NCBI GenBank assembly: GCA_902607435.1
Contig: CACLJX010000008.1
Coordinates: 2,427-66,426 of the forward strand
Origin: an uncultured Alphaproteobacteria bacterium
GTDB taxonomy: Bacteria; Pseudomonadota; Alphaproteobacteria; HIMB59; GCA-002718135
Length of the DNA stretch: 64,000 nucleotides
Direction: 5' to 3'
Made by a program: the position numbers and the translations under genes
Notes under the pieces: model-generated
The model's input: the letters and a program-made list of their open reading frames with translations, nothing else
Told to the model about the DNA's origin: nothing
Database searches by the model: none
Part shown: positions 31,454 to 60,196 of the stretch, one piece after another
Layout: every line of letters begins with the position of its first letter
Position numbering within the stretch: the first letter of the stretch is position 1

Positions 31454-32845
31454 TTATCTTAATGCTTTGACTATATTTTCACACATTTTTTTAGCATCAC
31501 CAAAAAGCATCGTTGTATTATCTCTGTAAAAAAGTTCATTATCAACCCCAGAATATCCAGTTGCTAAAGATCTTTTAACAAAAAGCACTGAATCAGATTT
31601 TTCAACATCTAAAATTGGCATACCATAAATTGGAGATGTCTTATCAGTTTTAGCTGCTGGATTGGTTACATCATTAGCACCTATAACAAATGAAACTTCG
31701 GTAACGGGAAAATCATGGTTAATTTCTTCAAGCTCTAATACTTCTTCATATGGCACATTTGCTTCAGCAAGTAGTACATTCATATGACCTGGCATTCTTC
31801 CAGCTACAGGATGAATTGCATAACGAACGTTTATGTTTTCTTTTTTTAAAAGATCGCCCATTTCTTTTAAAGCATGTTGTGCCTGTGCTACAGCCATTCC
31901 ATAGCCAGGAATAATTATAACTGAATCAGCATTCTTCAAAATGTAGGCTGCATCTTCAGCGTTACCTTGTTTAACAATTTTATCAGAGTTGTCAGAACCT
32001 CCTACACTAGCTTGTTCTCCACCAAAACCACCTAAAACAACACTGATAATAGATCGGTTCATTCCTTTGCTCATAATGTAACTCAGTATTGCTCCTGACG
32101 CCCCTACTAGTGCGCCAGTAATAATTAATAGGTTGTTGCTGAGGGTAAAACCAATACCACAAGCCGCCCACCCTGAGTAAGAGTTCAACATTGAAATGAC
32201 AACAGGCATATCTGCTCCACCTATCGGAATTACTACTAAAAAACCCAATAAAATTGAAATGATAACTATTGTCCAAAAAATAGAAGATAATTGTGTTAAA
32301 ACAAAAATAACAATTAATGCTAAAATAAACAAAAATATTAGAGCATTAATTAAGTGTTGAAATTTAAATACAATTGGATTGCCAGATATTGTTCCTTGCA
32401 ATTTTCCAAAAGCAAGAACAGAACCAGAAAAAGTTACTGCTCCAATAAAAGTACCAATACTCATCTCAACAAGACTACTTTTAAAAATTGAGCCTACATT
32501 TCCTATATTAAATGACATAGGATCATAAAAAGCTGCTGCAGCAACAAACACTGCTGCAAGACCGACCAAACTATGAAATGCTGCAACTAGTTGGGGTAAT
32601 GCTGTCATTTCAATTTTAAGTGCAATTATTGTCCCAATAAAACCACCAATTAAAACAGCTACACCAATTTCTGTATAACTTAAAACACTCTTAAACATAA
32701 GCGTTGTAACTATAGCTATGACCATACCGATGATGCCCAAAATGTTTCCTAAGCGTGATGATTCTGGATGCGACAAACCTCTAAGAGCAAATATAAAAAG
32801 TAATGCAGAAATTAAATATAATACTGATACTATATTTGATGACAT
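31454..32845 (-). CDS. pntB: NAD(P) transhydrogenase beta subunit
   Basis: HSLVGLAA, IGGADMPVVIS.LNSYSG, PGYGMAVAQAQ, HPVAGRMPGHMN. Confidence 0.97.
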   Translation of the reverse strand: MSSNIVSVLYLISALLFIFALRGLSHPESSRLGNILGIIGMVIAIVTTLMFKSVLSYTEIGVAVLIGGFIGTIIALKIEMTALPQLVAAFHSLVGLAAVFVAAAAFYDPMSFNIGNVGSIFKSSLVEMSIGTFIGAVTFSGSVLAFGKLQGTISGNPIVFKFQHLINALIFLFILALIVIFVLTQLSSIFWTIVIISILLGFLVVIPIGGADMPVVISMLNSYSGWAACGIGFTLSNNLLIITGALVGASGAILSYIMSKGMNRSIISVVLGGFGGEQASVGGSDNSDKIVKQGNAEDAAYILKNADSVIIIPGYGMAVAQAQHALKEMGDLLKKENINVRYAIHPVAGRMPGHMNVLLAEANVPYEEVLELEEINHDFPVTEVSFVIGANDVTNPAAKTDKTSPIYGMPILDVEKSDSVLFVKRSLATGYSGVDNELFYRDNTTMLFGDAKKMCENIVKALR

Positions 32846-33171
32846 TATTGTTCCTCTTTTTTTGTCTTAGGTTTCTTCTTAAACATTGAAAGCATCCGAT
32901 AGGTCACAATAAATCCGCCAAAAATATTAACAGTAGCTAATATGACGCCGATCATTCCAAAAATTTTCGAAACCCCATACCCTCCTGGACCTGCCGCAAG
33001 AATAGCACCAACAATAATCACACTTGAAATCGCATTTGTTACACTCATTAAAGGACTATGAAGTGCTGGGGTTACAGACCAAACTACATAATATCCAATT
33101 ATACAAGCAAGAAAAAAAACTGTTAGACCGATTACAAATATATCTGAACTATGACTTACTATTCCATCCAT
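32845..33171 (-). CDS. pntAb: NAD(P) transhydrogenase alpha subunit, part 2 (membrane)
   Basis: [31 protein letters not shown]. Confidence 0.95.
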
Positions 33172-33172
33172 C

Positions 33173-34294
33173 CTATTTAAACTCCTCTAATTTTAATTCT
33201 CCATTATGAGTTAACACGACCGCATTAATAATTTCATCGTTCCAATCAATATCAATTTTTTTCTCATCTTTTTTTATGAATAGTGAAAGAAAATTTACAA
33301 TATTTTTTGCATACAAAGCAGAAGCATCCTTTGCAACACGCCCTGGAACATTTGCATGACCGATAATTTTTACACTATTATGAATTACAATTTCGCCTAA
33401 TTTACTAAGTGGGCAGTTACCACCAGCTTCCACAGCAAGATCAACTACTATTGATCCTGGGGCCATCGTGTTTATCATTTCCTCACTTACTAACACCGGC
33501 GCTGGTTTTCCTGGTATGAGAGCAGTACAAATTACAATGTCTTGTTTTGATATAGTTTCTGCAATTAATTGAGATTGTTTTTTTTTATACTCTTCACTCA
33601 TTTCTTTTGCATATCCATCTTTGGTTTCCGCATTTTCTATCTCTTCATCCTCCACCATTATGAATTTAGCCCCTAAACTTTCTACTTGTTCTTTAGTGGC
33701 AATTCTTACATCTGTAGCAGATACAACTGCTCCCAATCTTTTAGCTGTGGCGATTGCCTGTAAGCCTGCAACGCCTACTCCTAAAACCATAACTTTAGCC
33801 GGATTAATTCTTCCTGCTGCTGTCATCATCATAGGAAATGCTTTTCCAAATTGCTCAGCAGCATCAATGACTGACCTGTAACCTGATAGATTTGCCTGAG
33901 AAGATAAGACATCCATGCTTTGTGATCTGCTAATTCTTGGAATTAATTCCATACAACATGCAGTTATTTTATTATTAATTAAATCACTAAAACTATTTTT
34001 ATTTTCATAGGGATTAAGTATCCCAACTAAAATTGTGTTATTATTCATTTTATCAATATCTTCTTTTGGAGGCATCTGCACGCAAAGACATATGTTTGCA
34101 TCTAAGCATTCCGAACGATTTACTATTTTAGCACCAGCAGATTGAAAAGATTCATCAACAAATCCAGATAAAACACCAGCTCCTTTTTCAATCAAAACAT
34201 CGACACCTAACCTAAGTAAAAGTTTAACGGATTCAGGAGAAGTTGCTACACGTTGCTCACGCGAACTTATTTCTTTAATGATTGAAATTTGCAT
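33173..34294 (-). CDS. pntAa: NAD(P) transhydrogenase alpha subunit, part 1
   Basis: [38 protein letters not shown]. Confidence 0.96.
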
Positions 34295-37464: not shown

Positions 37465-37519
37465 TAGAATAAATTAAATATAGGTTTAATATCTAGCCTT
37501 GTTAAGGAGAACAAGAATA

Positions 37520-39310
37520 ATGTCTGTTGATTTTGATAAATTTAAAAGTGTTATTAGTTTATTTGATAAACAATCTACTACTTTAAGCGAAAAACCTTAT
37601 TTATGGTATAAAATTAACAATGAGTACATCGCTTTAACTTGGAAACAAGTTCGTAATAAAGTTGAAAAGTTATCTATTGTATTAAAAAATCTTGGAATTT
37701 TAAAGGGAGACAGAGTTGTTATCGTTTCAGAAAATAGACCTGAATGGCTAATTTCAGATCTAGCTATAATGGCTATTGGGGCTATTACAGTACCAGCTTA
37801 TATAACGAATACTATTTCTGATCATGAACATATTATAAAACATTCAGGTGCACGCTGTCTTATTCTTTCAAATCATAATCTTGCACAAAAAGTTTTACCC
37901 GCAGTTGCAAAATGCTCTCAATGTCAAACTGTTATAAAAATTGAAAATGATAATGAAATTTATGATAATCCAGTTTCTGTTTTATCTTGGAAAAGTTTAC
38001 TTGAAGAAAATATAGAACAATCTTTTAATTTAACAACAGCCGTAGAAGAACACAAACGTCAAGATACAGCATGTATTATTTATACTTCAGGTACAGGTGG
38101 CTATCCTAAAGGTGTCATGTTAAGTCATGGAGCAATGCTTACAAATTGTTCTGGGGCAGAATACTTATTAAAAGAAATTGTCTCTAATTTAGATGAAATT
38201 CGTTTTTTATCTTGGCTTCCTTTATCTCATTCTTATGAACACACTTTACAGTTTTATATAATAGGAATAGGTGCACAAATTTACTATGCAGAAGGGATCG
38301 ATAAATTACTTATTAATATGGGTGAGACAAAACCCCATTTTATGACAGCTGTTCCAAGATTTTATGATTCATTACATGCAAAGATTTCGCAAGGTTTGAA
38401 AAAACAAAGTAAACTTTCCCAAATCTTTTTTTCTGAAACAATAAGATTAGGAAAGAAAATATACCAAGGAGAAAATCTTTCTGGATTTGAGCATTTTAAA
38501 AACTCTATCTTAAATAAAATTGTCCGAAAAAAAGTTAATAAAAGATTTGGGGGAGATTTGAAGGCTTTAATTTCTGGAGGTTCAGCTCTTAACTTTGAGG
38601 TTGGTTTATATTTAACTGCCTTGGGTCTGCCTTTGTTGCAAGGATATGGCCAAACAGAAACAGGCCCTGTTGTTAGTGCAAATCCACCTTCTAAAATAAA
38701 ACTTGATACTGTAGGAATAGTTTTCAAAGGGACTAAAGTAAAAATTGCAGATGACGGTGAAATTTTAGTATCCGGTGAAAATGTGATGAATGGATATTGG
38801 AATGATCCAAAATCAACTTCTTCTACTCTTATTAATGGTTGGATTCATACTGGGGATATAGGTGCCTTTGATGATGAAGGATATTTGAAAATTACAGATA
38901 GAAAAAAAGATATTATTGTAAATGCAGGAGGAGATAATATTTCTCCAAGTCGTGTTGAAGAAAAACTAAATATTGAGCCAGAAATATCTCAGTCTATGAT
39001 GTACGGTGATTATAAAAATTACCTAGTTGCAATCATAGTTCCAGATAGAGAGTTTGCAAAAAAATGGGCAGAGGATAATAACAAAGAATTTTCAATTAAA
39101 GAATTAATAAAAGATGAAGCATTTCTTAAGGTAATAAAACAAACCACAGAAAAAGTTAATAAGAATTTATCTGCAATAGAAAAAATTAGAAAATTTTTAT
39201 TAATTGATAATGAATTTACTATTGAAAATGAAATGATGACACCAACCATGAAAGTTCGTCGTTTTCAGGTAAAATTAAATTATTCTAATCAATTAGAGAA
39301 ATTATATTAA
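37520..39310 (+). CDS. Long-chain fatty acid-CoA ligase
   Basis: IYTSGTGG.PKGVMLSH, LPLSH.YE, GYGQTE, TGDIG, ITDRKKD. Confidence 0.9.
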   Translation: MSVDFDKFKSVISLFDKQSTTLSEKPYLWYKINNEYIALTWKQVRNKVEKLSIVLKNLGILKGDRVVIVSENRPEWLISDLAIMAIGAITVPAYITNTISDHEHIIKHSGARCLILSNHNLAQKVLPAVAKCSQCQTVIKIENDNEIYDNPVSVLSWKSLLEENIEQSFNLTTAVEEHKRQDTACIIYTSGTGGYPKGVMLSHGAMLTNCSGAEYLLKEIVSNLDEIRFLSWLPLSHSYEHTLQFYIIGIGAQIYYAEGIDKLLINMGETKPHFMTAVPRFYDSLHAKISQGLKKQSKLSQIFFSETIRLGKKIYQGENLSGFEHFKNSILNKIVRKKVNKRFGGDLKALISGGSALNFEVGLYLTALGLPLLQGYGQTETGPVVSANPPSKIKLDTVGIVFKGTKVKIADDGEILVSGENVMNGYWNDPKSTSSTLINGWIHTGDIGAFDDEGYLKITDRKKDIIVNAGGDNISPSRVEEKLNIEPEISQSMMYGDYKNYLVAIIVPDREFAKKWAEDNNKEFSIKELIKDEAFLKVIKQTTEKVNKNLSAIEKIRKFLLIDNEFTIENEMMTPTMKVRRFQVKLNYSNQLEKLY

Positions 39311-39600
39311 ACTAAATTATTTTTTTTTAATTTTTCAAGTTGTTCTTTTGAAGCTTCTGATTGATATTTGTCTTTCCATTCATTGTAAGGCATACCATAT
39401 ATTAATTCTCTTGCTTTCTGATAATCTACTTTAATATTTTTTTTCTCCGCAGCGCTAACATACCATTTCGATAGGCAATTACGACAAAAACCTGACAAAT
39501 TCATTAAATCAATATTCTGAACATCAGTTCTTTTTTGTAAATGAATAATTAATCTTTCTAATACATCAGCATATATTTCTCTTTGAATTGCTTTATCCAT
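39307..39600 (-). CDS. DUF1244 family protein
   Basis: HL..RTDVQNIDLMNL.GFCRNCLSKWY...YGMPY.EWK. Confidence 0.9.
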   Translation of the reverse strand: MDKAIQREIYADVLERLIIHLQKRTDVQNIDLMNLSGFCRNCLSKWYVSAAEKKNIKVDYQKARELIYGMPYNEWKDKYQSEASKEQLEKLKKNNLV

Positions 39601-39680
39601 ATTTTTTCCTATTTTTAAAAAATTGGCTCTCTTAATAATACTTACATTCAAAAGCTTTTTGAATTATATACACTTTTAAT

Positions 39681-41123
39681 ATGAAACGTAATAGAAAGGC
39701 CAAAATACTAGCAACTCTTGGCCCTGCTTCTGCTTCTTCTGATGTGATTGAACAACTTTTTATAGAAGGCGCTGATGTTTTTCGTTTAAATTTTTCACAT
39801 GGTACTATCGAAGAACATAGAAAAAACTCTGAATCTATTAGAAATATTGAAAAAAAATACAATTATGCCAATTGTATTTTAGCTGATTTACAGGGTCCTA
39901 AACTAAGAATAGGAAATTTTAAAAATGATAAGGTATCATTAAAAAATGGCCAGAAATTCACTCTTGATCTTCTAAATGATCAGGGTGATCACAGTAGAGT
40001 TAATTTTCCTCATCCTGAAATTTATGAAGTTTTAACTCCTAATTCAATAATTTTGCTAAATGATGGTCGTATTAAAATGCAAATCATAGAACAACATAAA
40101 GATCGTTTAATTACTGAAGTTTTAAGTGAAGGAATCATTTCTAACAATAAGGGGGTCAATATCCCTGATGCTATACTTCCCATATCTTCTTTAACTTCTA
40201 AAGATAAGGGAGATTTATTAAAAGCCCTTGAAATGGGAGTAGATTGGGTAGCGCTTTCCTTTGTTCAAAATGCAAAAGATGTAGAAGAATTAAGAAAATT
40301 AGTAGGCAACAAAGCCTCTATTATGGCTAAAATTGAAAAACCATCTGCTTTAAAAAATATTGAGGAAATTTTAGAAGTAGCTGATGGTATTATGATTGCT
40401 AGAGGAGATCTAGGGGTTGAATTGCCCCCAGAAAAAATCCCATCCATTCAAAAACTGATTATTAATCTTTGTAGAGAAAAAGGTAAACCTGTGGTTGTCG
40501 CAACACAAATGCTTGAAAGTATGATTAATGATCATAGTCCAACTCGAGCTGAAGCTTCCGATGTTGCAAATGCTATATACGATGGAGCAGATGCAGTCAT
40601 GTTATCTGCAGAATCAGCAATTGGAAAATATCCTATTGCAACGGTCACTATGATGAATCGCATAATTCTAAGTGTAGAAAATGATAAAGAAAATTATAAT
40701 CTTTCAAATATTAATATCGAAGAAAAAAATAAAAAAAGAATTGGCACAACTGATGCCATTACAAGTGCTGCTTATACTATTTCAAAAAATGCTGAAGCAA
40801 AAGCAATTGTTACTTTTTCAGTAAGCGGAGGAACTACATTGCGCATGTCAAAAGAAAGAGCCCCTGTTCAAGTAATAGGAGTTTCTCCAAACATCTCTAC
40901 TTCGCGAAAGTTGCAAATTGCTTGGGGAGTTCACTCATGTCATGCACAAGATGCTAATAGTGTAACAGAGATGGTTGACATAGCTTGTAGAATTATAAAA
41001 GATCAAAAAATTACTAAATCAGGGGAATCAGTTGTAATTACAGCTGGTGTGCCTTTTGGAAATGCCGGAGCAACAAATTTACTTCGAATTGCAAAAATTA
41101 TAGATGACAAAGATCTTACTTAA
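39681..41123 (+). CDS. pyk: Pyruvate kinase
   Basis: KI.ATLGPAS, RLNFSHG, DLQGPKLR, ARGDLGVE, ATQMLESM, PTRAE. Confidence 0.98.
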   Translation: MKRNRKAKILATLGPASASSDVIEQLFIEGADVFRLNFSHGTIEEHRKNSESIRNIEKKYNYANCILADLQGPKLRIGNFKNDKVSLKNGQKFTLDLLNDQGDHSRVNFPHPEIYEVLTPNSIILLNDGRIKMQIIEQHKDRLITEVLSEGIISNNKGVNIPDAILPISSLTSKDKGDLLKALEMGVDWVALSFVQNAKDVEELRKLVGNKASIMAKIEKPSALKNIEEILEVADGIMIARGDLGVELPPEKIPSIQKLIINLCREKGKPVVVATQMLESMINDHSPTRAEASDVANAIYDGADAVMLSAESAIGKYPIATVTMMNRIILSVENDKENYNLSNINIEEKNKKRIGTTDAITSAAYTISKNAEAKAIVTFSVSGGTTLRMSKERAPVQVIGVSPNISTSRKLQIAWGVHSCHAQDANSVTEMVDIACRIIKDQKITKSGESVVITAGVPFGNAGATNLLRIAKIIDDKDLT

Positions 41124-42321
41124 GATTTGAACAAGCCCGCATAATTCTCTCGCACGCTTCATTCAAAGTATTTTCGTCTGTTGCATATGAAATTCTAAAA
41201 TATGGTGAAAGTCCAAAAGCTTCTCCATGTACACCTGCTATTCCTTCACTATCTAATAAATAATTCATAAAATCCTCATCAGTATTAATAGTGATATTTT
41301 TTGGTGTTTTTTTGCCAATACAACCTTTGCAACTTGGATACACATAAAAAGCCCCTGAAGGATTAGCACAAGTAATACCAGGAACTTTATTTAATTTTTC
41401 TACAACCATATCTCTTCTTTTTTTAAAGGATTGATTGTGAGTTTGTATAAAATCTTGATTACCATTAAGTGCTTCTACAGCTGCTGCCATACTAATAGAA
41501 GAAGCTGAAGTAGTACTTTGAGATTGTATTTTATTTATTGCTTTGATGATTTCCTCTGGTCCCCCACAGTATCCTAATCTCCAACCTGTCATACAATAAG
41601 CTTTGGAAACGCCATTCATTGTTACTGTCCTATTTTTTAATTTAGGTTCTACTGTGGCGATAGTATAAAAATCTATATTGTCGTACAATATTTTTTCATA
41701 GATATCATCTGATAGAATAAAAACTTGAGGATATTTCAAAAGTATTTCTGCAAGCTCTTTTAGTTCATTATACGAATAGACTGCTCCTGTTGGATTGCTC
41801 GGACTATTTAACATAAGCCATTTAGTGTTTTGGTTTATATGTTGTTCAAGTTGTTGTGGTAAAATTTTAAATCCTTGTTTGGCATCACAAGGAACAATTA
41901 CTGGTTTTCCTTCTGCTAATAGAACTATATCAGGATAACTTACCCAATAAGGTGCGGGAATAATAACTTCATCATTAGGATTGAGTGTTGCCATCATAAC
42001 ATTATAAATTATATGTTTACCTCCTACTCCCACCATAATTTCATCTAAATTATAGGATAAATCGTTATCACGTTTGAATTTATTAATTATTGCTTGCTGC
42101 AAAGCAGGAGTACCCCTACCTGGCACATAACGTGTTTGTCCTTCATTCATTGCTTTACTAGCAGCCTCACAAATATTTTTAGGAGTATTGAAATCAGGTT
42201 CACCTGCTGCCAAGACTAATACATCTCGACCTTCAGCACGCAGAGCATTAGCCTTAACATTTATAGCTACTGTTAAGGAGGGTTGAATGTTTTCCAATCG
42301 TTTAGATAATATATCTTTCAT
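41116..42321 (-). CDS. Class I PLP aminotransferase (aspartate aminotransferase AatA-like)
   Basis: GEPDF.TP, PYWVSY, NSPSNPTG, DDIYE, SKAYCMTGWRLG, RISYA. Confidence 0.92.
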   Translation of the reverse strand: MKDILSKRLENIQPSLTVAINVKANALRAEGRDVLVLAAGEPDFNTPKNICEAASKAMNEGQTRYVPGRGTPALQQAIINKFKRDNDLSYNLDEIMVGVGGKHIIYNVMMATLNPNDEVIIPAPYWVSYPDIVLLAEGKPVIVPCDAKQGFKILPQQLEQHINQNTKWLMLNSPSNPTGAVYSYNELKELAEILLKYPQVFILSDDIYEKILYDNIDFYTIATVEPKLKNRTVTMNGVSKAYCMTGWRLGYCGGPEEIIKAINKIQSQSTTSASSISMAAAVEALNGNQDFIQTHNQSFKKRRDMVVEKLNKVPGITCANPSGAFYVYPSCKGCIGKKTPKNITINTDEDFMNYLLDSEGIAGVHGEAFGLSPYFRISYATDENTLNEACERIMRACSNLK

Positions 42322-42327
42322 TATATT

Positions 42328-43143
42328 TTAATAAAATTGATCAAATACAAGACTTACACATACGAGCAATAAAAAAATAGCAAAAATCTTTTTTAATGTT
42401 TTTTTATTGGCTTTTTTTGAAAGTTTAGCCCCTAAAGGAGCTGTTAATACACTCACGGATGCAACTGATAAAACAATTGGCAAATTAACATATCCCAATG
42501 AGTATCTTGGAAGTCCTTCAATCATCCATCCAGTTGAAGCGTAAGTTATAAAGCCTGGAAGTGCTATCAAAAAACCAATACTTGCTGAGGTCCCAACTGC
42601 ACGATGAATATTTTTTCCAAAAGCAGTCAAAGTAGGAACACTAAAACTTCCTCCTCCTATACCAATCAATACTGAAAAAAATCCAATCACGAAACTTATA
42701 ATATTATTTAAAAAAAAATTTTGTGGTATGTCGTTTGATAAAACAATATTTATATTTAAAAACATGCTGATTGCAACAGTGCTCGCTATGACTCCAAAAA
42801 TAATAACCAATATATTTCCATTAAAAAAACTAGCTAAAATTGCGCCAATAATGGACCCAAAGACAACGCCCATAAACCATTTTTTTATTACATTCACTTC
42901 AATATTCTTTAGTTTATTATGAGCATAAATGGATGAGAGCGAAGTAATACATATAACTCCGATTGATGAAGCAATGGCAACATGCATTATAATATTCGTG
43001 GAATAACCATAAAAATTCAAAATATAAAATACAACTGGAATAATTACGAGTCCTCCCCCAACTCCAAGTAACCCAGCAATCAATCCTGAAAACACACCAG
43101 TAATTATTAATAAAATTAAAAATTGTAAAAATTCTAATTCCAT
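42328..43143 (-). CDS. TSUP (TauE/SafE) family membrane transporter
   Basis: Internal repeat AGLLGVGGG / LIGIGGG, H.A.(A/G)(S/T)S, multiple TM helices. Confidence 0.9.
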   Translation of the reverse strand: MELEFLQFLILLIITGVFSGLIAGLLGVGGGLVIIPVVFYILNFYGYSTNIIMHVAIASSIGVICITSLSSIYAHNKLKNIEVNVIKKWFMGVVFGSIIGAILASFFNGNILVIIFGVIASTVAISMFLNINIVLSNDIPQNFFLNNIISFVIGFFSVLIGIGGGSFSVPTLTAFGKNIHRAVGTSASIGFLIALPGFITYASTGWMIEGLPRYSLGYVNLPIVLSVASVSVLTAPLGAKLSKKANKKTLKKIFAIFLLLVCVSLVFDQFY

Positions 43144-43147
43144 AAAA

Positions 43148-44116
43148 CTAATTAGTTTTTGATATTCTTTCTGAAACTTTGTTTAAAATATTATCAATTG
43201 TTGGAGTTTTAATACTAAGTAAATCCCCAATTTCTTTTACAGTTAAGATAAGCGCATCTAATTCTAATTCTTTACCTTTTTCATAATCTTGCAACATAGA
43301 TGTTTTGTGAGCTCCTACTTTAGCGGCACCTTCTATACGTTGGTCAATACTAATGTTAAGTGAAATGTTTAATTTGTTCATTATTAAACTTGCTTCCTGC
43401 ATTGCTGCATATGCAATCTTTTTGTTTTCTTCTTTCGATAACAATACTTCAAGTGTTTCACCCGTAATGACACTTAGAGGATTAAATGCAAGATTGCCGA
43501 TAAGTTTCATCCATATTTCTTGTCTAATATTATTGCGAATTGGAGCTTTTAGATTAGCTCTGACTAAGGCTTTACTTATTATAGAGACTCTTTCAGATTG
43601 TATTCCGCTTGGTTCTCCGAGTGAAAAACGATTACCTTCTAGATGTTTTATAACCCCAGGTTGTATAATCTCAGTAGCTGGATAAACAACACATCCTATT
43701 ACTCTCTCAGGTGTAATTAATTTCCATTGAATATTATCAGGATCAATGCATTGAAATCGATAGTTATCAAATTGTCCACCAATATTGAAAAAATACCACC
43801 AAGGTATACCATTATAAGCTGTAATTACTGAAGTATTGTCATGAAACATTTTAGCAATTTCCTTAACTACTCCAGGTATTGAGTATGCTTTAAGAGTAAT
43901 AAAAATAAAATCCATTTCACCTAATTCCTCCATTGAATCTGAACATTTAGGTTTGCAGGTAATTTCTTTTTCGTTTTCAATTATAGTAAGTCCTGTTTTT
44001 TTCATTGCTTCTAAATGAGCTCCTCTTGCAACAAGTGAAACATCAAGACCTGCATTAATTAGCTTAACCCCTAAATAGCCGCCAGTAGCTCCAGCTCCTA
44101 CGATACAAATTTTCAT
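43148..44116 (-). CDS. Ketopantoate-reductase-family protein, probable oxalyl-CoA reductase (PanE2-like)
   Basis: GAGA.GG, ARGAHL, NGIPWWYF, GCVVY, W.KL.GN..FNP, HKTSMLQD; ATGA overlap with the oxalate-CoA-ligase-like gene. Confidence 0.8.
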   Translation of the reverse strand: MKICIVGAGATGGYLGVKLINAGLDVSLVARGAHLEAMKKTGLTIIENEKEITCKPKCSDSMEELGEMDFIFITLKAYSIPGVVKEIAKMFHDNTSVITAYNGIPWWYFFNIGGQFDNYRFQCIDPDNIQWKLITPERVIGCVVYPATEIIQPGVIKHLEGNRFSLGEPSGIQSERVSIISKALVRANLKAPIRNNIRQEIWMKLIGNLAFNPLSVITGETLEVLLSKEENKKIAYAAMQEASLIMNKLNISLNISIDQRIEGAAKVGAHKTSMLQDYEKGKELELDALILTVKEIGDLLSIKTPTIDNILNKVSERISKTN

Positions 44117-45636
44117 TTCTCTAATCCTAGTTTTTTAGCTAAACCAATTCTTTGAAGTTTGCCTGTTTTGCCTTTTGGTATTTCATCCAAAAAAACAATT
44201 GTTTGAGGAATTTTATAAGATATTAATATTTTGCTAAGAAATTCTTTAAGTTCTTGAGCTGTTAATTGATGATCATTTTTTAAAACAATAGCGGCTGCAA
44301 CTTCTTCTCCAAGCTTAGCATGCACAATTGGAAACGTTATGCCTTGAAAAACACTCTCATGTTGCATAATTGCGTCATCAATCTCTAAAGGTGAAATCTT
44401 TTCTCCTCCCTTATTTATAATTTCCTTGATACGACCTGTTATTTGAAGAAAGCCTTCTTCATCATAAAAACCTTGATCACCCGTACGAAACCATCCATTT
44501 ATAAATGAATCTTTATTCGCTTGAGAATTATTTAAATATCCTTTTGTGACATTTTTTCCTCTAATAATTATTTCTCCAATCTTTCCATTTTCTAAAATCT
44601 TATGACTATCATCTATAACTGAAACTTTAGGTCCTGCTGCAAATCCAACTTTTATAGCTTTTCTATTTCCGGGAGGTAAATGATTGCTTGTCATTTGATG
44701 TGAGGCCTCGGTCATGCCATATGATTCTATAACTGGACAATGAAAGATTTTTTCAATTTCTTTCATTGTCATTGAAGGTAATGGTGCTGAGCTAGATCTG
44801 ATGAATCTTAATTTTGTCTCTTCAATAATTTCAGAATTTCTATTAGCCCGAGTGAGAATTGCTTGGTGCATTGTTGGAACAGCACTATACCAAGTTGGAG
44901 AAAATACTTTAAGCCACGAAAAAAATTTCAATGCGTTAAATCCTGGTGAAGTGAAAATATTCCCTCCTGAAAATAGTGAAGAAAGCAACAAACCAACAAT
45001 TCCATGAATATGAAATAAAGGCATGATATTTATACATTTATCGGATCTATCTAAATTTAGAGTTTGAACAATATTTTTTGCAGAAGTGCAAAGGTTTAAA
45101 TGAGTCAAAGGAACCATTTTTGGTTTTGAAGTTGTCCCTGAAGTATGAAGTATTAAAGCTATGTCATCAGGTATAATAATATCATTTTGATTTATAGTAT
45201 TAGATATATTTTCATTTTTAGATCTTAAACTAAATTTTCCTGAGGGATCTATATTATTAACTAATAGGTTAAATATTTTAATCTTTTTTCTTTTTGCCAC
45301 TTCAATTACTGGTGAACTGGAATCTTCTTTTACTATAAGTGCTTTAGGTTTTAAGTCTTCAAGATAAAAATCAAATTCAGAAGCAGTATATGAAGGATTA
45401 AGTGGTGCAGCACAGCAATTGCTTGCTGTTGCAAGAAAAGAAGTAGCCATTACAGGACCATTTTCACATACAATTGCTATGGTATCTGTTTTTTGTATGT
45501 GATTCTTATGAAAAAAATCTTTTGTCCAATCAATTTGTCTGTTTAAATCAGCATAAGTGAAAACCGGTTGATCTTCTGTGAAGATATAGGCTTCTTCATC
45601 ATTAAAAAAATTAACAATTTCTGGTATAGTTTTCAT
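44113..45636 (-). CDS. Acyl-CoA synthetase, probable oxalate-CoA ligase (AAE3/Pcs60/Oxs-like)
   Basis: APLNP.Y, LHTSGTTSKPK.VPLTH.NL, PLFHIHG, TWYSAVPTMHQ, LRFIRSSSAPL, YGMTEASHQMTSN, GGEKISP.E. Confidence 0.85.
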   Translation of the reverse strand: MKTIPEIVNFFNDEEAYIFTEDQPVFTYADLNRQIDWTKDFFHKNHIQKTDTIAIVCENGPVMATSFLATASNCCAAPLNPSYTASEFDFYLEDLKPKALIVKEDSSSPVIEVAKRKKIKIFNLLVNNIDPSGKFSLRSKNENISNTINQNDIIIPDDIALILHTSGTTSKPKMVPLTHLNLCTSAKNIVQTLNLDRSDKCINIMPLFHIHGIVGLLLSSLFSGGNIFTSPGFNALKFFSWLKVFSPTWYSAVPTMHQAILTRANRNSEIIEETKLRFIRSSSAPLPSMTMKEIEKIFHCPVIESYGMTEASHQMTSNHLPPGNRKAIKVGFAAGPKVSVIDDSHKILENGKIGEIIIRGKNVTKGYLNNSQANKDSFINGWFRTGDQGFYDEEGFLQITGRIKEIINKGGEKISPLEIDDAIMQHESVFQGITFPIVHAKLGEEVAAAIVLKNDHQLTAQELKEFLSKILISYKIPQTIVFLDEIPKGKTGKLQRIGLAKKLGLEK

Positions 45637-45704
45637 CAGATTTAAGTAATTAATCTTTATATTTACTACAATAAAGATAATAGTTATAAAAATAAATTAG
45701 CAAT

Positions 45705-46829
45705 ATGAAAAACATTCATTGGCTTGGTTCGGGTCTTTCCTCTATCCCTGGTATCAGGCGCTTAGCATCAAATAATTACAATTTAACTGTCTGGAACAGA
45801 ACTCTCTCAAAGGCCCAAAAAAGCATTGATCACATTAAAACAGATAAAGTTTCCGCGAAAACTCTTAATATAGATTCAATTGCAGAAAACATTAAACAAG
45901 GTGATATTATAGTATCCCAACTTACAGCAAGTATGCATTTGGACATTGCAAAAATTTGTCTTGAAAAAAAATGTCATTTTATAACAACAAGCTATTTATC
46001 TCCTGATATTAAAAAATTGAATGAACAAACAGTTGCTCAAAATCTTGTTTTTATGAATGAAGTTGGGCTTGACCCAGGCATTGATCATTTTTTTTCACAC
46101 TTACTGGTCCAAGAACTTAAATCACTGAACCTTAGTAATTTATCAGTGAGTTATAAATCTTACTGTGGGGGAATACCTGCGGTACCTAATGATTTTAAAT
46201 ATAAGTTTAGTTGGTCTCCTGTTGGGGTAATTAAAGCTTTAAACAGTCCAGCTAAATATATTCAAAATTTTGAAAAAAAACTTGTTCTTCAACCTTATAA
46301 AGAAATCAAAAATTACTTAATTAATAATGAAAACTTTGAAGCTTATCCAAATCGAGATTCTTTGCCTTACATTGAAGAATATTTATTTTCTCCACAATGG
46401 AAAATTAAAGAATTTGTCAGAGGTACGCTTAGGTTAAATGGTTGGACATCAGCTTGGGAGGAAATATTTAAAATGCTTGAAAAGCAAGATGCTAACATTG
46501 AAGAACAAATTCAACAAAAAAGTGATGAACTTTGGAAGAACTTTAGATACGATAATAATGAAGAAGATCGAGTTGTGTTATGGGTTAATTTGGAAGCTAA
46601 GCAGCAAGACAAAAAAGTATTTTCATCAACTTATAAGTTAGATGAAAAAGGTTCGGGTGAAAATACGGCAATGGCAAAATTAGTTTCTATTACACTAAGT
46701 GCTGCTATAGATTTAATGTTACAAAATAAAATTCGACCAGGGGTTCAAGCTGCTCCGTCAAATAAAAATATTATTGATTATTTTTTTAAAGTATTATCTG
46801 ATTACTCAATAAAAATAGATCATCATTAA
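45705..46829 (+). CDS. Saccharopine dehydrogenase (glutamate-forming/Lys9-like) family
   Basis: T.SY, NEVGLDPGIDH, SYCGG.P, YKFSWSP.G, EAYPNRDS, RGTLR, TAMA..V. Confidence 0.88.
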   Translation: MKNIHWLGSGLSSIPGIRRLASNNYNLTVWNRTLSKAQKSIDHIKTDKVSAKTLNIDSIAENIKQGDIIVSQLTASMHLDIAKICLEKKCHFITTSYLSPDIKKLNEQTVAQNLVFMNEVGLDPGIDHFFSHLLVQELKSLNLSNLSVSYKSYCGGIPAVPNDFKYKFSWSPVGVIKALNSPAKYIQNFEKKLVLQPYKEIKNYLINNENFEAYPNRDSLPYIEEYLFSPQWKIKEFVRGTLRLNGWTSAWEEIFKMLEKQDANIEEQIQQKSDELWKNFRYDNNEEDRVVLWVNLEAKQQDKKVFSSTYKLDEKGSGENTAMAKLVSITLSAAIDLMLQNKIRPGVQAAPSNKNIIDYFFKVLSDYSIKIDHH

Positions 46830-46831
46830 AT

Positions 46832-48061
46832 ATGTATAAGATTGCCATAATTAGAGAATCTAGATCTGATGACAGACGGACCCCTTTAGTTCCAACACAT
46901 ATTAAAGATCTACTAAGTGCTTTTCCTGGATTAAGTATTACCGTCCAGCCTTCCAAGCATCGCTGTTTTTCAGACGAAGAATACGAAGAACAAGGTACGA
47001 TCATCAGTGAAAATTTAAGTGCGTGTGACTTGATTTTAGGAATTAAGGAAATAGAACCTAATCTTTTAATTCCCTCAAAAAGCTACATGTTTTTTTCTCA
47101 CACAAGTAAAATTCAACCAGATAATTCTGCAGCAGCACAAGGAACGCCAGGAATGGATAAAAAAGAATTACTTAAAGAAATATTAAAAAAAAAAATTACC
47201 TTAATTGACTATGAAAACATACGTGATGATCGTAGTCGACGTTATCTTGGCTTTGGTCGTTTTGCTGGTATTGTCGGTTGCTATAATTCACTTAATTTAT
47301 ACCTACAAACTTTGGGACAAAAAACAATGCCCCGTGCCCATGAATTAAATTCTTATGAAAAATTAAAAGATAACATTAATAAAAAAAATTTTGGAAATGT
47401 TAGAATTATTATTACAGGTGATGGACGTGTAGCTAAAGGATCTTTAGAGTTTTTAGATTTTACAAATATAAAAGAAGTATTACCAGATGAATATTTACAA
47501 AATAATAATTCTTCAGCTGTCTTTTGTAATCTACCTACTTCTGCCTATGTAATGAATAAAGATGGAAGTGATTTTAATTTACAACATTTCATCAATTCTC
47601 CTGAAATGTATATTTCTGTACTTGATAAATATATGTCTAGTACAAGTATGCTTATAAGTTCCCATTATTGGGATCCTAAATCACCGCGATTATTAAATAA
47701 AAAAGATATTGAAAAATATAATAATCTTAAAGTCATAGGAGATATTACTTGTGATGTGAATGGTTCTATTCCTACAACCTCAAGACCTTCCTCAATTCTA
47801 GATCCTTTTTATTATGTAGATCGAACAACATTGCAAGAAGTTAGCCAACACGATCAAGCTCTTGCTATTATGGCAGTTGATAATTTGCCTTCTGAACTTC
47901 CAAAAGATTCTAGTAAAGAATTTGGAGATGGTATTATAAAAGAAGTACTCCCTTATATTTTTGCAAAAGATGATGGAAGAATCAAAAGAGCTACAATTAC
48001 AGAAAATGGTGATTTTTTACCTTCTTACAAGTATTTAATAAATTATATAAATACCAAATGA
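46832..48061 (+). CDS. Lysine-ketoglutarate reductase-like protein (AlaDh/PNT fold)
   Basis: IIRE....RRTPL.P, VQPS..R.F.D.EY, FFSHT.K.Q, LIDYE, FGRFAG..G, YW....PRL, DITCD..GS, VDNLPSELP.D.S..FG. Confidence 0.85.
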   Translation: MYKIAIIRESRSDDRRTPLVPTHIKDLLSAFPGLSITVQPSKHRCFSDEEYEEQGTIISENLSACDLILGIKEIEPNLLIPSKSYMFFSHTSKIQPDNSAAAQGTPGMDKKELLKEILKKKITLIDYENIRDDRSRRYLGFGRFAGIVGCYNSLNLYLQTLGQKTMPRAHELNSYEKLKDNINKKNFGNVRIIITGDGRVAKGSLEFLDFTNIKEVLPDEYLQNNNSSAVFCNLPTSAYVMNKDGSDFNLQHFINSPEMYISVLDKYMSSTSMLISSHYWDPKSPRLLNKKDIEKYNNLKVIGDITCDVNGSIPTTSRPSSILDPFYYVDRTTLQEVSQHDQALAIMAVDNLPSELPKDSSKEFGDGIIKEVLPYIFAKDDGRIKRATITENGDFLPSYKYLINYINTK

Positions 48062-53589: not shown

Positions 53590-54669
53590 TTGAAAAAATT
53601 ATTTATCATTTTGTTATCGTGTGTATTTATCTGTGTAATAATTATATTTGTTGTTCGTGACCGATTTAGTATTGAAACAATAATATCAAATATTGAAAAC
53701 CAAGCTGGCTTGGATATTAAATTAAATGATATAAGCAAATATGTATTTTATCCTTCAATCAATTTTAATAATGAAAATGTCACTATAAATAAAAAAGATA
53801 TCCAACTTATTATTAAAAAAGCTAACATAAATATTTCTAAAAATTATTGGCCTACTTCTCCAATAAATTTAAATCTAACAACTCCTACTATCAATTACCA
53901 AGGGATAGAAATACGTGATGCTATTATAGATGCCTCCTATCAAAATAACATCATAACTATTAATAGCTTTATTGGAAAAATCATTGAAGGAGATGTTGAT
54001 TTAATTGGAAAAATAGAAATTAATGAAAAACAATCCTTTAATATTAAAGGCAATTTTAAAAATATTTCACTTAATACTCTTCTACAACAATCTCAAATGG
54101 CGAAATGGGACAGAGTAAATATTAAATTATCTTCAACTAATTTAAGTATATCTGGAAAAATTAATGATAATAATCCATTATTGGTTTTAAATGGAACTAT
54201 TCCTATTACAGGTATATTTTATTTAACAACTACTGAAGAAGAAAAATTTGGGGCTACTTTTCTTTCATTATTAGTTGAAAAAATTCCAGACTTATCTTCT
54301 ATTAGTAAGTCAATAAATTTTATAGTGTTTAATTATTCTAATATTCCAACTTCTCTTATTGGTGTTTTACAAATTAAAAATGGATTAATTAAGAGCGATG
54401 AAATTTTAATTCAAAATAAAAGTGCTAAATCTACATTAAAAGGATCTTACAATTTTATAAAAAATGAAATTGATGGTACAATATATTTTTTTAAAGAAAA
54501 TGATATTTTTGTTGAAGCACAATTAAAAGGTGAAATTGATAATCCACAAATTCTTGTTGGAGGGAAAGTTTTTGCTGAAAATGAAGAGGAACCACTTCAA
54601 GATATAAAAAAATTATTTGAGGAGGGTATTAATTCACTCATAAACAAACTATTAAATATAGATGAGTAG
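53590..54669 (+). CDS. AsmA-like protein
   Basis: N-terminal TM anchor, beta-rich body, C-terminal L.G...NP and terminal helix. Confidence 0.65.
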   Translation: MKKLFIILLSCVFICVIIIFVVRDRFSIETIISNIENQAGLDIKLNDISKYVFYPSINFNNENVTINKKDIQLIIKKANINISKNYWPTSPINLNLTTPTINYQGIEIRDAIIDASYQNNIITINSFIGKIIEGDVDLIGKIEINEKQSFNIKGNFKNISLNTLLQQSQMAKWDRVNIKLSSTNLSISGKINDNNPLLVLNGTIPITGIFYLTTTEEEKFGATFLSLLVEKIPDLSSISKSINFIVFNYSNIPTSLIGVLQIKNGLIKSDEILIQNKSAKSTLKGSYNFIKNEIDGTIYFFKENDIFVEAQLKGEIDNPQILVGGKVFAENEEEPLQDIKKLFEEGINSLINKLLNIDE

Positions 54670-59437: not shown

Positions 59438-60196
59438 TTAAAATAAATATTTTTTTTCTATTTCTTTCATTAAAAGGGAATCATAATAATTGTAATCAAT
59501 AATCTGTTGATATAATTTTTTAATCATTAAATCTATAAAATTCCTATTGTAATTTGCTACATTTTCATGAACATAAGATGGAAGATTGAAACCATAGTAT
59601 GAAATAAATTTATTTATAAATAAGTTGAAAGAATCTACATCACCAATTAGTTTAAAATATTTTAAATTATTAATAGCAGTTTCATAATCAGATTGAGTAA
59701 TTTTATAATCGTTTTCAACATAAAAATATTTTTCATACGGAATGCCTGCAATTGTTTTTGTAACAATATTTGATGTAATAAAGTTATTTTCTAATAATTT
59801 TATTATTATAGGAATATCGTTCTCAGACAAAGTTAATTGAAAAAATACATTTTCATTAATATTTTTTATATTATCTAAATTGCGTTTTTTTTGTAGGTAA
59901 GTATGAAAATATTTAAAATATATGTTGGAAAAAAAATGTTTATGAACATCTCTTACTAAAGTATACAAATCAACATTCTTACATTCATCACTAAAAACAA
60001 AATGACCACTTAAAAAATTTTTTGCTCCTTGTGGCTTAAAATAATCAAAAGAAAATTTGCGAAGATAAAATTTTTTACCTACTTGTAAATAATTAATATT
60101 GTTTTGATTTGATATTTTTTCCAAAATATGATTGAATGTTAATCCTCCAGTTTTTGGTATATGAAGAAAAACTATTGGTTTTAATATATTAAACAT
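59438..60196 (-). CDS. Sulfotransferase family protein
   Basis: FLHIPKTGG.T (5'-PSB loop), GH, TLVRD (3'-PB-like). Confidence 0.75.
   Translation of the reverse strand: MFNILKPIVFLHIPKTGGLTFNHILEKISNQNNINYLQVGKKFYLRKFSFDYFKPQGAKNFLSGHFVFSDECKNVDLYTLVRDVHKHFFSNIYFKYFHTYLQKKRNLDNIKNINENVFFQLTLSENDIPIIIKLLENNFITSNIVTKTIAGIPYEKYFYVENDYKITQSDYETAINNLKYFKLIGDVDSFNLFINKFISYYGFNLPSYVHENVANYNRNFIDLMIKKLYQQIIDYNYYDSLLMKEIEKKYLF

Follow-up and report, generated by a model that had tools for sequence, protein, structure and literature searches.

Oxs and PanE2 of Methylobacterium/Methylorubrum extorquens AM1 reportedly convert oxalate to oxalyl-CoA and then to glyoxylate, as Schneider et al. are said to have described in 2012, and the same organism is said to hold oxc/frc for energy. 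The DNA analysed here, a stretch of 64,000 nucleotides from an uncultured alphaproteobacterium (the window), encodes members of both enzyme families next to each other, and the chemistry proposed for them is the same, as far as the M. extorquens system is described in papers citing it. In M. bullatum the two homologs are also adjacent, with 43.8% identity to the window protein for the reductase and 50.1% for the ligase, but there the order is oxlT, a FAH-family gene, reductase and ligase, whereas in the window the ligase comes first, the reductase is followed by a TSUP permease, and neither oxlT nor a FAH-family gene accompanies them. According to PMC9485241, PanE purified from M. extorquens converts glyoxylate and oxalyl-CoA into one another.

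A second described system is that of C. necator H16 (PMC7486775). There apbA2 adjoins frc-oxc and shares 51% identity with M. extorquens panE2, and the doubling time during growth on oxalate, normally 6.5 h, rises to 10 h when the gene is deleted. Cupriavidus reductases in our sample (L052, L075) share the NF005089 subfamily and its signature with the window protein, to which they are 46-47% identical (49-50% to the M. bullatum reductase), and form a derived clade of their own (13 rows, support 100). Unlike the window gene, the Cupriavidus gene is accompanied by frc, oxlT and pntAB and lacks an adjoining AMP-forming ligase, its oxalyl-CoA being made by a CoA-transferase. Because members of the family are tied to oxalyl-CoA and glyoxylate in published work, we regard the sequence oxalate to oxalyl-CoA to glyoxylate as well supported.

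OxlT/Frc/Oxc oxalotrophy has the oxalyl-CoA intermediate in common with the proposed route, and many reductases of the family are embedded in such clusters. The window differs in that all three genes are absent, ATP would drive the activation in place of CoA transfer, and neither a decarboxylation nor a step that yields energy is apparent. A Pfam scan covering 59 of the 63 open reading frames of at least 100 aa (one partial frame at the edge and three antisense overlaps were left out) found no TPP-enzyme, CoA_transf_3 or MFS domain, bearing out the initial annotation, which had stated that oxc, frc and OxlT do not occur in the window.

The ligase and the reductase

The ligase gene (44113..45636, minus strand, 507 aa) encodes AMP-binding (5.6e-64) and AMP-binding_C domains. 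Its top solved relatives are all oxalate-CoA ligases, namely yeast Pcs60, Lathyrus LsOCS and Arabidopsis AAE3 (8aff, 2.2e-113; 6qjz, 4.8e-113; 5ie0, 1.1e-111), and the next kind of enzyme, malonyl-CoA synthetase, follows about 58 orders of magnitude behind at 9.2e-55. Eight residues are said to shape the oxalate pocket of AtAAE3 (PMC8905533), and two of them, Ser289 and His319, are reported as specific to oxalyl-CoA synthetases. In our alignment five of the eight are identical in the window ligase (H211=H216, S283=S289, M308=M314, H313=H319 and K493=K500, window residue first), both specificity residues included, and the other three are conservative changes from AtAAE3 (Val to Ile, Cys to Ser, Ala to Gly). 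S283 and H313 are invariant in all 67 bacterial family members (the window, 58 loci and 8 database proteins) and missing from both control ligases. No NCBIfam model reaches its cut-off on this protein, the best being the FadD7 family at 382.7 against 650. The reading that fits the gene best is that of an oxalate-CoA ligase (oxalyl-CoA synthetase) of the AAE3/Pcs60/Oxs type, and the structural relatives and pocket residues agree with the initial annotation on this point. In plants oxalyl-CoA passes to oxalyl-CoA decarboxylase and on to CO2, whereas in the window we propose that it passes to a reductase. Close relatives of the ligase are far rarer in the databases than those of the reductase, which could mean that many relatives pair the reductase with another partner. 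One ligase relative, 71% identical (P0357), carries the depositor label 'putative sulfoacetate--CoA ligase'.

The second gene (43148..44116, minus strand, 322 aa; Pfam ApbA and ApbA_C) encodes a putative oxalyl-CoA reductase of the PanE2/ApbA2 type, that is, a CoA-acylating glyoxylate dehydrogenase. Among NCBIfam models NF005089 scores highest (423.6 bits, cut-off 223), and it is also the best model for all ten relatives tested, members of frc/oxc clusters included. A signature made up of NGxP[W/Y]WYF and HKTSMLQD occurs in 85 of 85 family rows and is missing from a generic PanE paralog, which scores just 88.9 on NF005089. In the family tree the window lineage nests within the family, in a subclade other than those of the Cupriavidus or Methylobacterium-like proteins, and groups with two low-GC loci (L016 and L036), a placement that is unsure given the deviant composition of these rows. 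The protein is 44-53% identical to relatives whose gene context or genetics support the function. Judged by model, signature and tree, it belongs to a distinct PanE-like subfamily, and together with the context of its relatives these data uphold the earlier likening to the PanE-like group, which is tied to the interconversion of oxalyl-CoA and glyoxylate.

Linkage of the two genes was followed in 80 fetched loci that carry the reductase, with a ligase ortholog defined as at least 45% identical. The ligase lies directly upstream of the reductase on the same strand in 53 loci; in three more it adjoins the reductase but is broken into fragments or truncated at the edge of the contig, and in seven it lies elsewhere within the locus. 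The remaining 17 are without it, and 11 of these have frc, oxc, oxlT or gcl above curated cut-offs. The loci come from Alpha-, Beta- and Gammaproteobacteria, Gemmatimonadota, Acidobacteriota, Chloroflexota, Latescibacterota and Poribacteria, so that the pairing stands as a cross-phylum module. Genes flanking the pair or the reductase include malate synthase G (L019), malate synthase (L026) and isocitrate lyase (L035).

The permease, the aminotransferase and the gene block

The two enzyme genes are followed on the minus strand by a permease gene (42328..43143) and an aminotransferase gene (41116..42321), the junctions being, in order, a 4-bp overlap and gaps of 4 and 6 bp, exactly as first annotated. 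Protein lengths in close database relatives match those of the window (ligase 506-507 aa, reductase 320-322 aa, permease 271 aa, aminotransferase 401 aa). The tight spacing is the norm of this genome and no more than chance: coding density in the window is about 96%, and the 40 same-strand neighbour pairs have a median gap of 4.5 bp, with 28 of them at 10 bp or less. Spacing alone is thus weak evidence for a functional operon. In a consensus scan of the block, neither promoter-like sites (15 against 23.5 expected) nor terminator-like sites (3 against 1.9 expected) were in excess. Its sole space for a promoter, as a candidate only, is the AT-rich intergenic region of 68 bp (45637..45704) between the ligase and a divergent saccharopine-dehydrogenase-like gene, and within this region lies a perfect 8-nt inverted repeat, ATCTTTAT-N10-ATAAAGAT, at 45653-45678. 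No Rfam family matched anywhere in the 64,000 nt.

The permease (271 aa) has a full-length match to Pfam TauE (1.1e-46), the domain of the TauE/SafE (TSUP) anion permeases; it hit no NCBIfam model and no solved relative, and an Atlas search with it returned TauE clusters only. To our knowledge, the described members of this family handle sulfite, sulfoacetate or sulfonates, and among the papers listed by a literature search on TauE or TSUP with oxalate or oxalyl-CoA, none connected a bacterial TSUP protein with oxalate. Over 262 aa the permease shares 37% identity with a TSUP protein encoded after the ligase in five Comamonadaceae loci, and in Azospirillum a distant TauE gene lies between oxlT and the reductase. 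The initial annotation had the permease linked to the enzyme pair, which holds in these two other lineages but not across the sample, no TauE-family gene being present in 74 of the 80 loci.

The aminotransferase (401 aa; Pfam Aminotran_1_2, 1.1e-77) is of class I and AatA-like, with near-full-length matches to housekeeping AatA, its best solved relatives being 'Aspartate aminotransferase A' (6f77, 3e-147) and 6f35 (3.3e-142), and scores 553.9 on the NCBIfam aspartate transaminase model NF004769, under the cut-off of 617. Only one of the 80 loci has a match to it, a weak one with 25% identity that lies several kb off. A part for it in the oxalate pathway, which had been suggested, finds no support here; in line with the accompanying caveat that it looks like an ordinary AatA and may be a mere neighbour, it is probably an unrelated housekeeping gene in a gene-dense genome.

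These observations bear on how far the four genes act together. The enzymes could be as described without the four genes being a functional unit, the permease and AatA being unrelated to them and the pair clearing or salvaging intracellular oxalate rather than oxalate from seawater. Such a role matches the catabolic or detoxifying one reported for plant AAE3 and yeast Pcs60 (the plant papers call AAE3 an enzyme of oxalate catabolism), and the genome-wide tight spacing, the many loci without a TauE-family gene and the unlinked aminotransferase all agree with this explanation. Against it, about 1.1 Mb of related loci contained six TauE-family genes, and each of the six directly adjoins the ligase or the reductase; they represent two independent lineages. 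Other transporters beside the pair in other lineages, namely oxlT (immediately before it in L059; also L081), components of ABC systems in loci of the Mesorhizobium type and an MFS gene that follows the reductase (L017, L022, L024), fit the uptake of an outside substrate, and a shared longest-contig value of 2348 for relatives of the permease (P0274) and the reductase (P0026) hints at adjacency in a close relative. We consider this explanation a serious one, if somewhat short of probable. The TauE-family genes beside the module in the two other lineages lend weak to modest support to the permease as part of it, in which it may, speculatively, carry oxalate or another small anion.

Other possible activities for the pair

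That the second gene encodes PanE itself, a ketopantoate reductase serving pantothenate and CoA synthesis, next to an unrelated short-chain acyl-CoA synthetase, seems to us very unlikely. All databases name the protein 2-dehydropantoate 2-reductase; it has the conserved Lys, Glu and Asn that typify the KPR fold (K204, E285 and N102), presumably the equivalents of the E. coli catalytic residues; and the broad PanE model TIGR00745 is passed (175.6 against 141.35), so that ketopantoate reductase activity is still compatible with the sequence alone. However, every equivalog-level PanE model falls under its cut-off, the family's own signature is missing from the generic PanE paralog, and the context of the relatives, an oxalate-type ligase or else frc, oxc, oxlT or gcl, shows no pantothenate link. 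What has been published on the genetics and enzymology of family members, in the papers cited above, likewise concerns oxalyl-CoA and glyoxylate.

We give similarly little credence to the pair running oxidatively as a glyoxylate sink. The reaction reportedly goes both ways, and a passage from glyoxylate through oxalyl-CoA to formyl-CoA and further breakdown has been proposed for C. necator (PMC7486775); but that route requires oxc and frc, both absent from the window. The partner here is, moreover, an AMP-forming ligase. Ligases of this ANL type in practice run solely toward the thioester, so the pairing of ligase and reductase makes sense only in the reductive direction.

Hardly credible is a sulfoacetate block, in which a SauT-like sulfoacetate-CoA ligase and the reductase would yield sulfoacetaldehyde and the TauE-family protein would export sulfite released later: the logic is that of the C. 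necator sulfoacetate pathway, a ligase plus an acylating reductase, and both the exporter family and the P0357 label fit it, but that label is automatic and from the depositor, the oxalate-specific Ser and His are kept with oxalate-CoA ligases leading the solved relatives by a wide margin, the relatives' context (oxlT, frc, oxc, gcl, malate synthase) is that of oxalate and glyoxylate rather than sulfonates, and the window holds no TPP enzyme to serve as Xsc.

Proposed route and its host

We thus think it likely that oxalate is turned through oxalyl-CoA into glyoxylate in two steps, first by the ligase and then by the reductase, with a permease that may import oxalate and an AatA that is probably a housekeeping neighbour. 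By homology and the conserved pocket residues, the ANL-family ligase would adenylate oxalate and then transfer it to CoA (oxalate + ATP + CoA to oxalyl-CoA + AMP + PPi; EC 6.2.1.8). The PanE-like reductase would then act on the thioester with NAD(P)H (oxalyl-CoA + NAD(P)H to glyoxylate + CoA; EC 1.2.1.17 run backwards), as its family, the gene context of its relatives and published work suggest. As the first step is AMP-forming, the route would be effectively one-way toward glyoxylate. The permease, encoded 4 bp downstream of the reductase, may move oxalate across the membrane, which is speculative. Possible sinks for glyoxylate are malate synthase, a glyoxylate aminotransferase forming glycine, and the glycerate pathway; the Pfam scan found no glyoxylate-consuming enzyme or further oxalate gene in the window.

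The initial annotation had invoked the glycine limitation of SAR11. Close relatives of the window proteins are labelled 'Alphaproteobacteria bacterium', in one case 'MarineAlpha5', and a pfk gene is present in the window; according to the AEGEAN-169 paper, AEGEAN-169/HIMB59 and some SAR11 have pfk, whereas none is reported for subclade Ia. With these labels and pfk, the SAR11 argument does not transfer automatically to the organism of the window. Most likely, a route already known from soil bacteria is found here in a small-genome bacterium of the ocean.

The putative oxalate pocket of the ligase

Four genes run in one direction on the minus strand between 41116 and 45636: a ligase of 507 aa with AMP-binding and AMP-binding_C domains (44113..45636), a reductase of 322 aa with ApbA and ApbA_C domains (43148..44116), a TSUP permease of 271 aa with a TauE domain (42328..43143) and an aminotransferase of 401 aa with an Aminotran_1_2 domain (41116..42321). 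The ORF coordinates agree with the layout described in the initial annotation, in which ligase and reductase overlap by 4 bp and gaps of 4 bp and 6 bp follow. As short gaps are usual across the window, where same-strand neighbours have a median gap of 4.5 bp, 28 of 40 such pairs lie 10 bp or less apart and about 96% is coding, the tight spacing of the block carries little weight.

The ligase has the ANL fold (PF00501, 5.6e-64; PF13193, 1.7e-09), and its top solved relatives are yeast Pcs60 (8aff, 2.2e-113), LsOCS of Lathyrus (6qjz, 4.8e-113) and Arabidopsis AAE3 (5ie0, 1.1e-111). These three score 377-383 bits, whereas the next kind of enzyme, a malonyl-CoA synthetase, scores 189.7 bits (9.2e-55), so that the protein is nearer to proven oxalate-CoA ligases than to other characterised acyl-CoA ligases. 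No NCBIfam model reached its cut-off, the top one being the FadD7 family (382.7 against 650), and no model specific to oxalate-CoA ligase surfaced for this protein.

An excerpt of the paper on LsOCS (PMC8905533) lists eight residues for the oxalate pocket of AtAAE3, V215, H216, C288, S289, A313, M314, H319 and K500, and states, citing the structure paper of that enzyme, that S289 and H319 are conserved in oxalyl-CoA synthetases only. In the HMMER alignment to 5ie0 the equivalents in our ligase are I210, H211, S282, S283, G307, M308, H313 and K493; five of the eight are identical, three are conservative changes, and both specificity residues (S283 and H313) are retained. K493 aligns with K500 of AtAAE3, the catalytic lysine of the adenylation step. 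A MAFFT alignment of 67 family members (the window protein, 58 from related loci and eight database proteins) showed S283, H313, M308, H211 and K493 each to be invariant in all 67, and both control ligases, one from the window (37499-39310) and an unrelated one from locus L023, lack S283 and H313. Judged by its closest solved relatives and its pocket serine and histidine, the first gene most probably encodes what the initial annotation took it for, an oxalate-CoA ligase of the AAE3/Pcs60/Oxs type (EC 6.2.1.8).

The control ligase of the window (603 aa) is a second, unrelated AMP-binding ligase that is FadD11-like with a score under the model cut-off and without the oxalate pocket residues; together with the DUF1244 gene that follows it, it occupies 37499-39651, 2 kb from the block.

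A distinct, PanE-like reductase subfamily

The second gene has the fold of ketopantoate reductases (PF02558, 8.7e-26, with the N-domain match ending at residue 104; PF08546, 3.7e-24), and G7, G9 and G12 of its N-terminal GxGxxG are invariant. Among solved structures its nearest match is 3ghy (1.1e-63), deposited as a 'ketopantoate reductase protein' and uncharacterised, and the second follows at 2.7e-22. That it might be a true PanE (EC 1.1.1.169) has some basis in the broad TIGR00745 subfamily model, which it exceeds (175.6 versus 141.35). We rate this reading low: the equivalog PanE models are all under cut-off (e.g., NF005091, 139.4 versus 252), so that no equivalog-level model is passed, and the top NCBIfam model is NF005089 with 423.6 bits against a cut-off of 223. 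The same model is the top one in all ten relatives tested, which represent both types of gene context and include Cupriavidus, Pandoraea, Xanthobacter, Burkholderia and Azospirillum.

Relatives were collected by a genome scan with a 16-sequence reductase alignment, which gave 80 loci among the matches listed. These are 45-53% identical to the window reductase, with none from the window's own lineage among the matches listed, and span Alpha-, Beta- and Gammaproteobacteria, Gemmatimonadota, Acidobacteriota, Chloroflexota, Latescibacterota and Poribacteria. A signature that we define here, NGxP[W/Y]WYF (N102-G103-x-P105-[W/Y]106-W107-Y108-F109) and HKTSMLQD (H270-K-T272-S273-M-L275-Q276-D277), is common to all 85 family rows, comprising the window, five close database relatives and 79 loci (L020 was excluded as too short). 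Both motifs are missing from a generic PanE paralog in locus L062, which reaches 88.9 bits against NF005089. In a quick maximum-likelihood tree with SH-aLRT support only, rooted on this paralog, the window lineage forms one clade (support 100) within the family and groups with the low-GC, ligase-adjacent loci L016 and L036 (support 95), and a derived clade (13 rows, support 100) is made up of the loci adjoining frc, oxc, gcl or oxlT; as the amino-acid composition of the low-GC rows is deviant, their exact place is unsure.

The reductase therefore belongs to the same subfamily as reductases residing inside frc/oxc/oxlT clusters, of the Cupriavidus ApbA2 kind, and it overlaps a putative oxalyl-CoA-forming enzyme by 4 bp. 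The linkage recurs in 53 of the 80 loci listed: immediately upstream of the reductase, and on its strand, these encode a ligase ortholog with 46-56% identity over ~500 aa. The placement of the second gene in the PanE-like group of putative oxalyl-CoA reductases, which would form glyoxylate at the expense of NAD(P)H, is as first annotated and is borne out by NF005089, the shared signature, the tree and the locus context.

The chemistry and the gene pair are already known from Methylobacterium. A search of C. necator with panE2 of M. extorquens found apbA2 close to the frc-oxc operon with 51% identity, and deletion of apbA2 slowed growth on oxalate, the doubling time rising from 6.5 h to 10 h (excerpt of Claassens et al. 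2020, PMC7486775). The reductases of the Cupriavidus loci L052 and L075 are presumably apbA2 orthologs, since frc and oxlT adjoin them. On a Methylobacterium bullatum replicon from the plasmid collection, an oxalate/formate antiporter (629.7 bits against a cut-off of 335) is followed by a FAH-family protein, the reductase and the ligase, the last two being 43.8% and 50.1% identical to those of the window. The M. bullatum reductase shares 49-50% identity with those of Cupriavidus, in agreement with the published 51%; we infer that it is the PanE2 ortholog and use it in place of M. extorquens PanE2. [quoted passage not shown] That the pair of the window runs in the oxidative direction is a reading that we rate low, since an AMP-forming ligase in practice works towards the thioester alone.

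The gene abounds in metagenomes. At least 120 database clusters, mostly from marine metagenomes, are at least 80% identical to the window reductase, and clustering at 50% identity leaves 769 representatives at E ≤1e-30 with a top identity of 48%. Ligase relatives fall to ~55% identity by about rank 43, whereas the reductase has those clusters at 80% or above; it may be that more of the close relatives have the reductase than the ligase, with a CoA-transferase as a conceivable partner. Reductase fusion proteins carry ACT, GNAT or FAH domains, among which only FAH gave an oxalate clue.

Gene context of the pair in the window and in related loci

Outside the 53 loci with the pair in direct order, the ligase adjoins in fragmented form in L006 and L030, is cut by the contig end in L051, lies 3-7 kb away in seven loci (L004, L040 and five of Comamonadaceae) and is absent from 17 of the 80 loci listed. 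Eleven of these 17 carry oxalate or glyoxylate genes within 8 kb that score above curated NCBIfam cut-offs, namely formyl-CoA transferase (L052, L056, L071, L075, L077 twice, and L078), oxalyl-CoA decarboxylase (L038, L076, L077), oxalate/formate antiporter (L021, L052, L077) and glyoxylate carboligase (L021, L031, L050). Further neighbours agree with this: the ligase is preceded by malate synthase G in L019 and the reductase by isocitrate lyase in L035, L026 has a malate synthase close to the pair, and six loci have class-V aminotransferases near it, three passing the pyridoxamine-pyruvate transaminase model and three being BhcA-like under the cut-off. ORFs in these loci were picked with an imperfect GC3 filter, hence neighbour counts from clustering are approximate.

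The commonest third partner of the pair in relatives is a FAH-family gene (L081:6176-6952; cluster C2 in 20 of the 80 loci listed, e.g., L042:8972-9757 and L054:7156-7998), which is fused to the reductase in the database protein P0132 (604 aa) and is absent from the window. In Azospirillum, Cupriavidus, Burkholderia and Caballeronia (L021, L082, L052, L075, L056, L071) pntAB adjoins the reductase, which may reflect NADPH supply; as pntAB of the window (31454-34294) is ~9 kb from the reductase, no such linkage can be claimed there. In Burkholderia and Caballeronia (L056:6224-7636, L071:6234-7646) the reductase is immediately preceded by pyruvate kinase, which occurs also in L067 (1093-2235); its recurrence near the window block may be a coincidence. 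Locus L044, titled as an Akkermansia muciniphila MAG, hardly differs from the Comamonadaceae loci L034, L041, L048 and L054 in its genes or its reductase sequence, probably through an error of binning or labelling.

In close relatives of the window, equal longest-contig sizes were noted for ligase and UvrB (89030, 41216), ligase and reductase (18962, 18174, 9298), TSUP and reductase (2348) and AatA and UvrB (44656), which, if equal size is taken as contig identity, hints at conserved synteny.

The window has 63 ORFs of 100 aa or more, and the Pfam scan covered 59 of them, all but a partial ORF and three antisense overlaps. No TPP-enzyme, CoA_transf_3 or MFS domain occurred in these 59, and the window therefore holds no oxc, frc or oxlT, as had been noted at first sight; the classical oxlT-frc-oxc oxalotrophy cluster is not found within these 64 kb. 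Four ORFs of 151-622 aa (10328-12196, 53590-54669, 59438-60196 and 5112-5567) have no Pfam match at E ≤1e-5.

On its upstream side the block borders an AT-rich stretch of 68 bp, beyond which a saccharopine-dehydrogenase-like gene diverges; on its downstream side a convergent pyruvate kinase (39681-41123) overlaps the aminotransferase by 8 bp. The Rfam search of the window gave zero matches, and therefore no riboswitch ahead of the block. The putative divergent promoter region of 68 bp contains, at 45653-45678, a perfect 8-nt inverted repeat, ATCTTTAT-N10-ATAAAGAT, which may be a chance product of very AT-rich DNA. Beyond it, 45705-48061 holds two genes divergent from the ligase and with weak family matches, the saccharopine-dehydrogenase-like one (374 aa) and one resembling AlaDH/PNT (409 aa), which may be a saccharopine/lysine or polyamine pair.

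The aminotransferase is best read as a housekeeping gene. It matches the Rhizobium-type 'Aspartate aminotransferase A' (6f77, 3e-147, residues 5-398), scores 553.9 against a cut-off of 617 on the aspartate transaminase model NF004769, and has a match of any kind in only one of the 80 loci listed, at 25% identity and several kb away. This is in keeping with the reservation in the initial annotation that it may be an ordinary AatA neighbour.

Possible oxalate transport and supply of glyoxylate

The permease matches PF01925 over its full length (1.1e-46, residues 12-265 against positions 1-237 of 237); finer classification found no NCBIfam model and no solved relative, and the Atlas returned TauE clusters only. 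A census with a reseeded local profile against all six-frame ORFs of the 80 loci identified TauE-family genes in only six of those listed, each directly beside the module. Five of the six are Comamonadaceae loci closely related to one another; there the gene comes ~120 bp after the ligase and is 37% identical to the window TSUP over 262 aa. The Azospirillum oryzae gene has oxlT on one side and the reductase on the other, and this order recurs in the RefSeq annotation of A. ramasamyi, namely oxlT, TauE/SafE, '2-dehydropantoate 2-reductase', CBS, pntA and pntB, with gcl further on. As the Azospirillum TauE has no BLAST similarity to the window TSUP, we regard it as a family-level coincidence and not as orthology. 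The Azospirillum OX-1 proteomics paper and one supplement make no mention of TauE or the reductase, and literature searches showed no link between TSUP and oxalate among the top-ranked matches. Linkage of TSUP to the module, part of the original proposal, recurs in the five Comamonadaceae loci and, at the level of the family, in Azospirillum, but not in the other loci listed; two independent recurrences in addition to the window do not suffice for a statistical test.

The TauE/TSUP family has so far been tied to sulfite and sulfonates, and on that ground the block might handle sulfoacetate. We rate this low, the ligase having the pocket residues of oxalate-CoA ligases. Elsewhere the pair is found beside other transporters, including oxlT (immediately before the ligase-reductase pair in L059), NMT1-type ABC components in Mesorhizobium-like loci, TctA/TctC and an MFS gene after the reductase. 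This is in keeping with a module whose substrate comes from outside, and makes the TSUP permease a reasonable candidate transporter and nothing more. In the Mesorhizobium-type and related loci (L025, L028, L029, L045, L047, L055, L064) a GntR regulator, an NMT1-type binding protein, two permeases, an ATPase and a FAH-family gene accompany ligase and reductase, and this apparent operon suggests that the same module is supplied there by an ABC importer. Import of oxalate by the TSUP permease is a bolder, unproven reading.

The GC content is mostly ~0.22-0.35 per 2-kb window and the region is rich in housekeeping genes. GC and the 96% coding density fit SAR11 (Pelagibacterales); the named close relatives (UvrB 84-87%, reductase 81%, ligase 71%) are labelled 'Alphaproteobacteria bacterium', in one case 'MarineAlpha5', and none at 71-87% bears the name Pelagibacter or Pelagibacterales. 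Both pfk and pyk are present in the window, and pfk is described as typical of AEGEAN-169/HIMB59 and some SAR11 and as missing in subclade Ia (excerpt of PMC10308909). The organism may or may not belong to SAR11 proper, and the initial argument from the glycine limitation of cultured SAR11 does not simply carry over to it.

A description of oxalate potential in SAR11 invokes a yfdE-like CoA-transferase, that is, a system other than the ligase-reductase pair (PMC12636525, excerpt of supplement file 2). Literature searches yielded no description of the pair in SAR11, Pelagibacter or HIMB59-type bacteria among the top-ranked matches.

Oxalate, a common small acid in a highly oxidised state, forms in sunlit seawater, and in SAR11-type cells glyoxylate feeds both glycine supply and the malate synthase step. 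It is conceivable, if rather doubtful, that ligase, reductase and TSUP permease constitute a self-contained scavenging module in an abundant streamlined marine alphaproteobacterial lineage, in which the permease imports seawater oxalate that is turned into glyoxylate and on into glycine or C4 units without frc, oxc or oxlT. Were this so, a large part of the oxalate turnover in the sea would escape surveys that rely on frc, oxc and oxlT as markers.

The chemistry of the route itself is not new. What the window presents is a predicted route of this kind, with an ATP-driven ligase and a reductase, in a marine alphaproteobacterium whose DNA is low in GC and densely coding. The label '2-dehydropantoate 2-reductase' is probably wrong for thousands of genes, and the route, if active, would provide these oligotrophs with one more source of glyoxylate.
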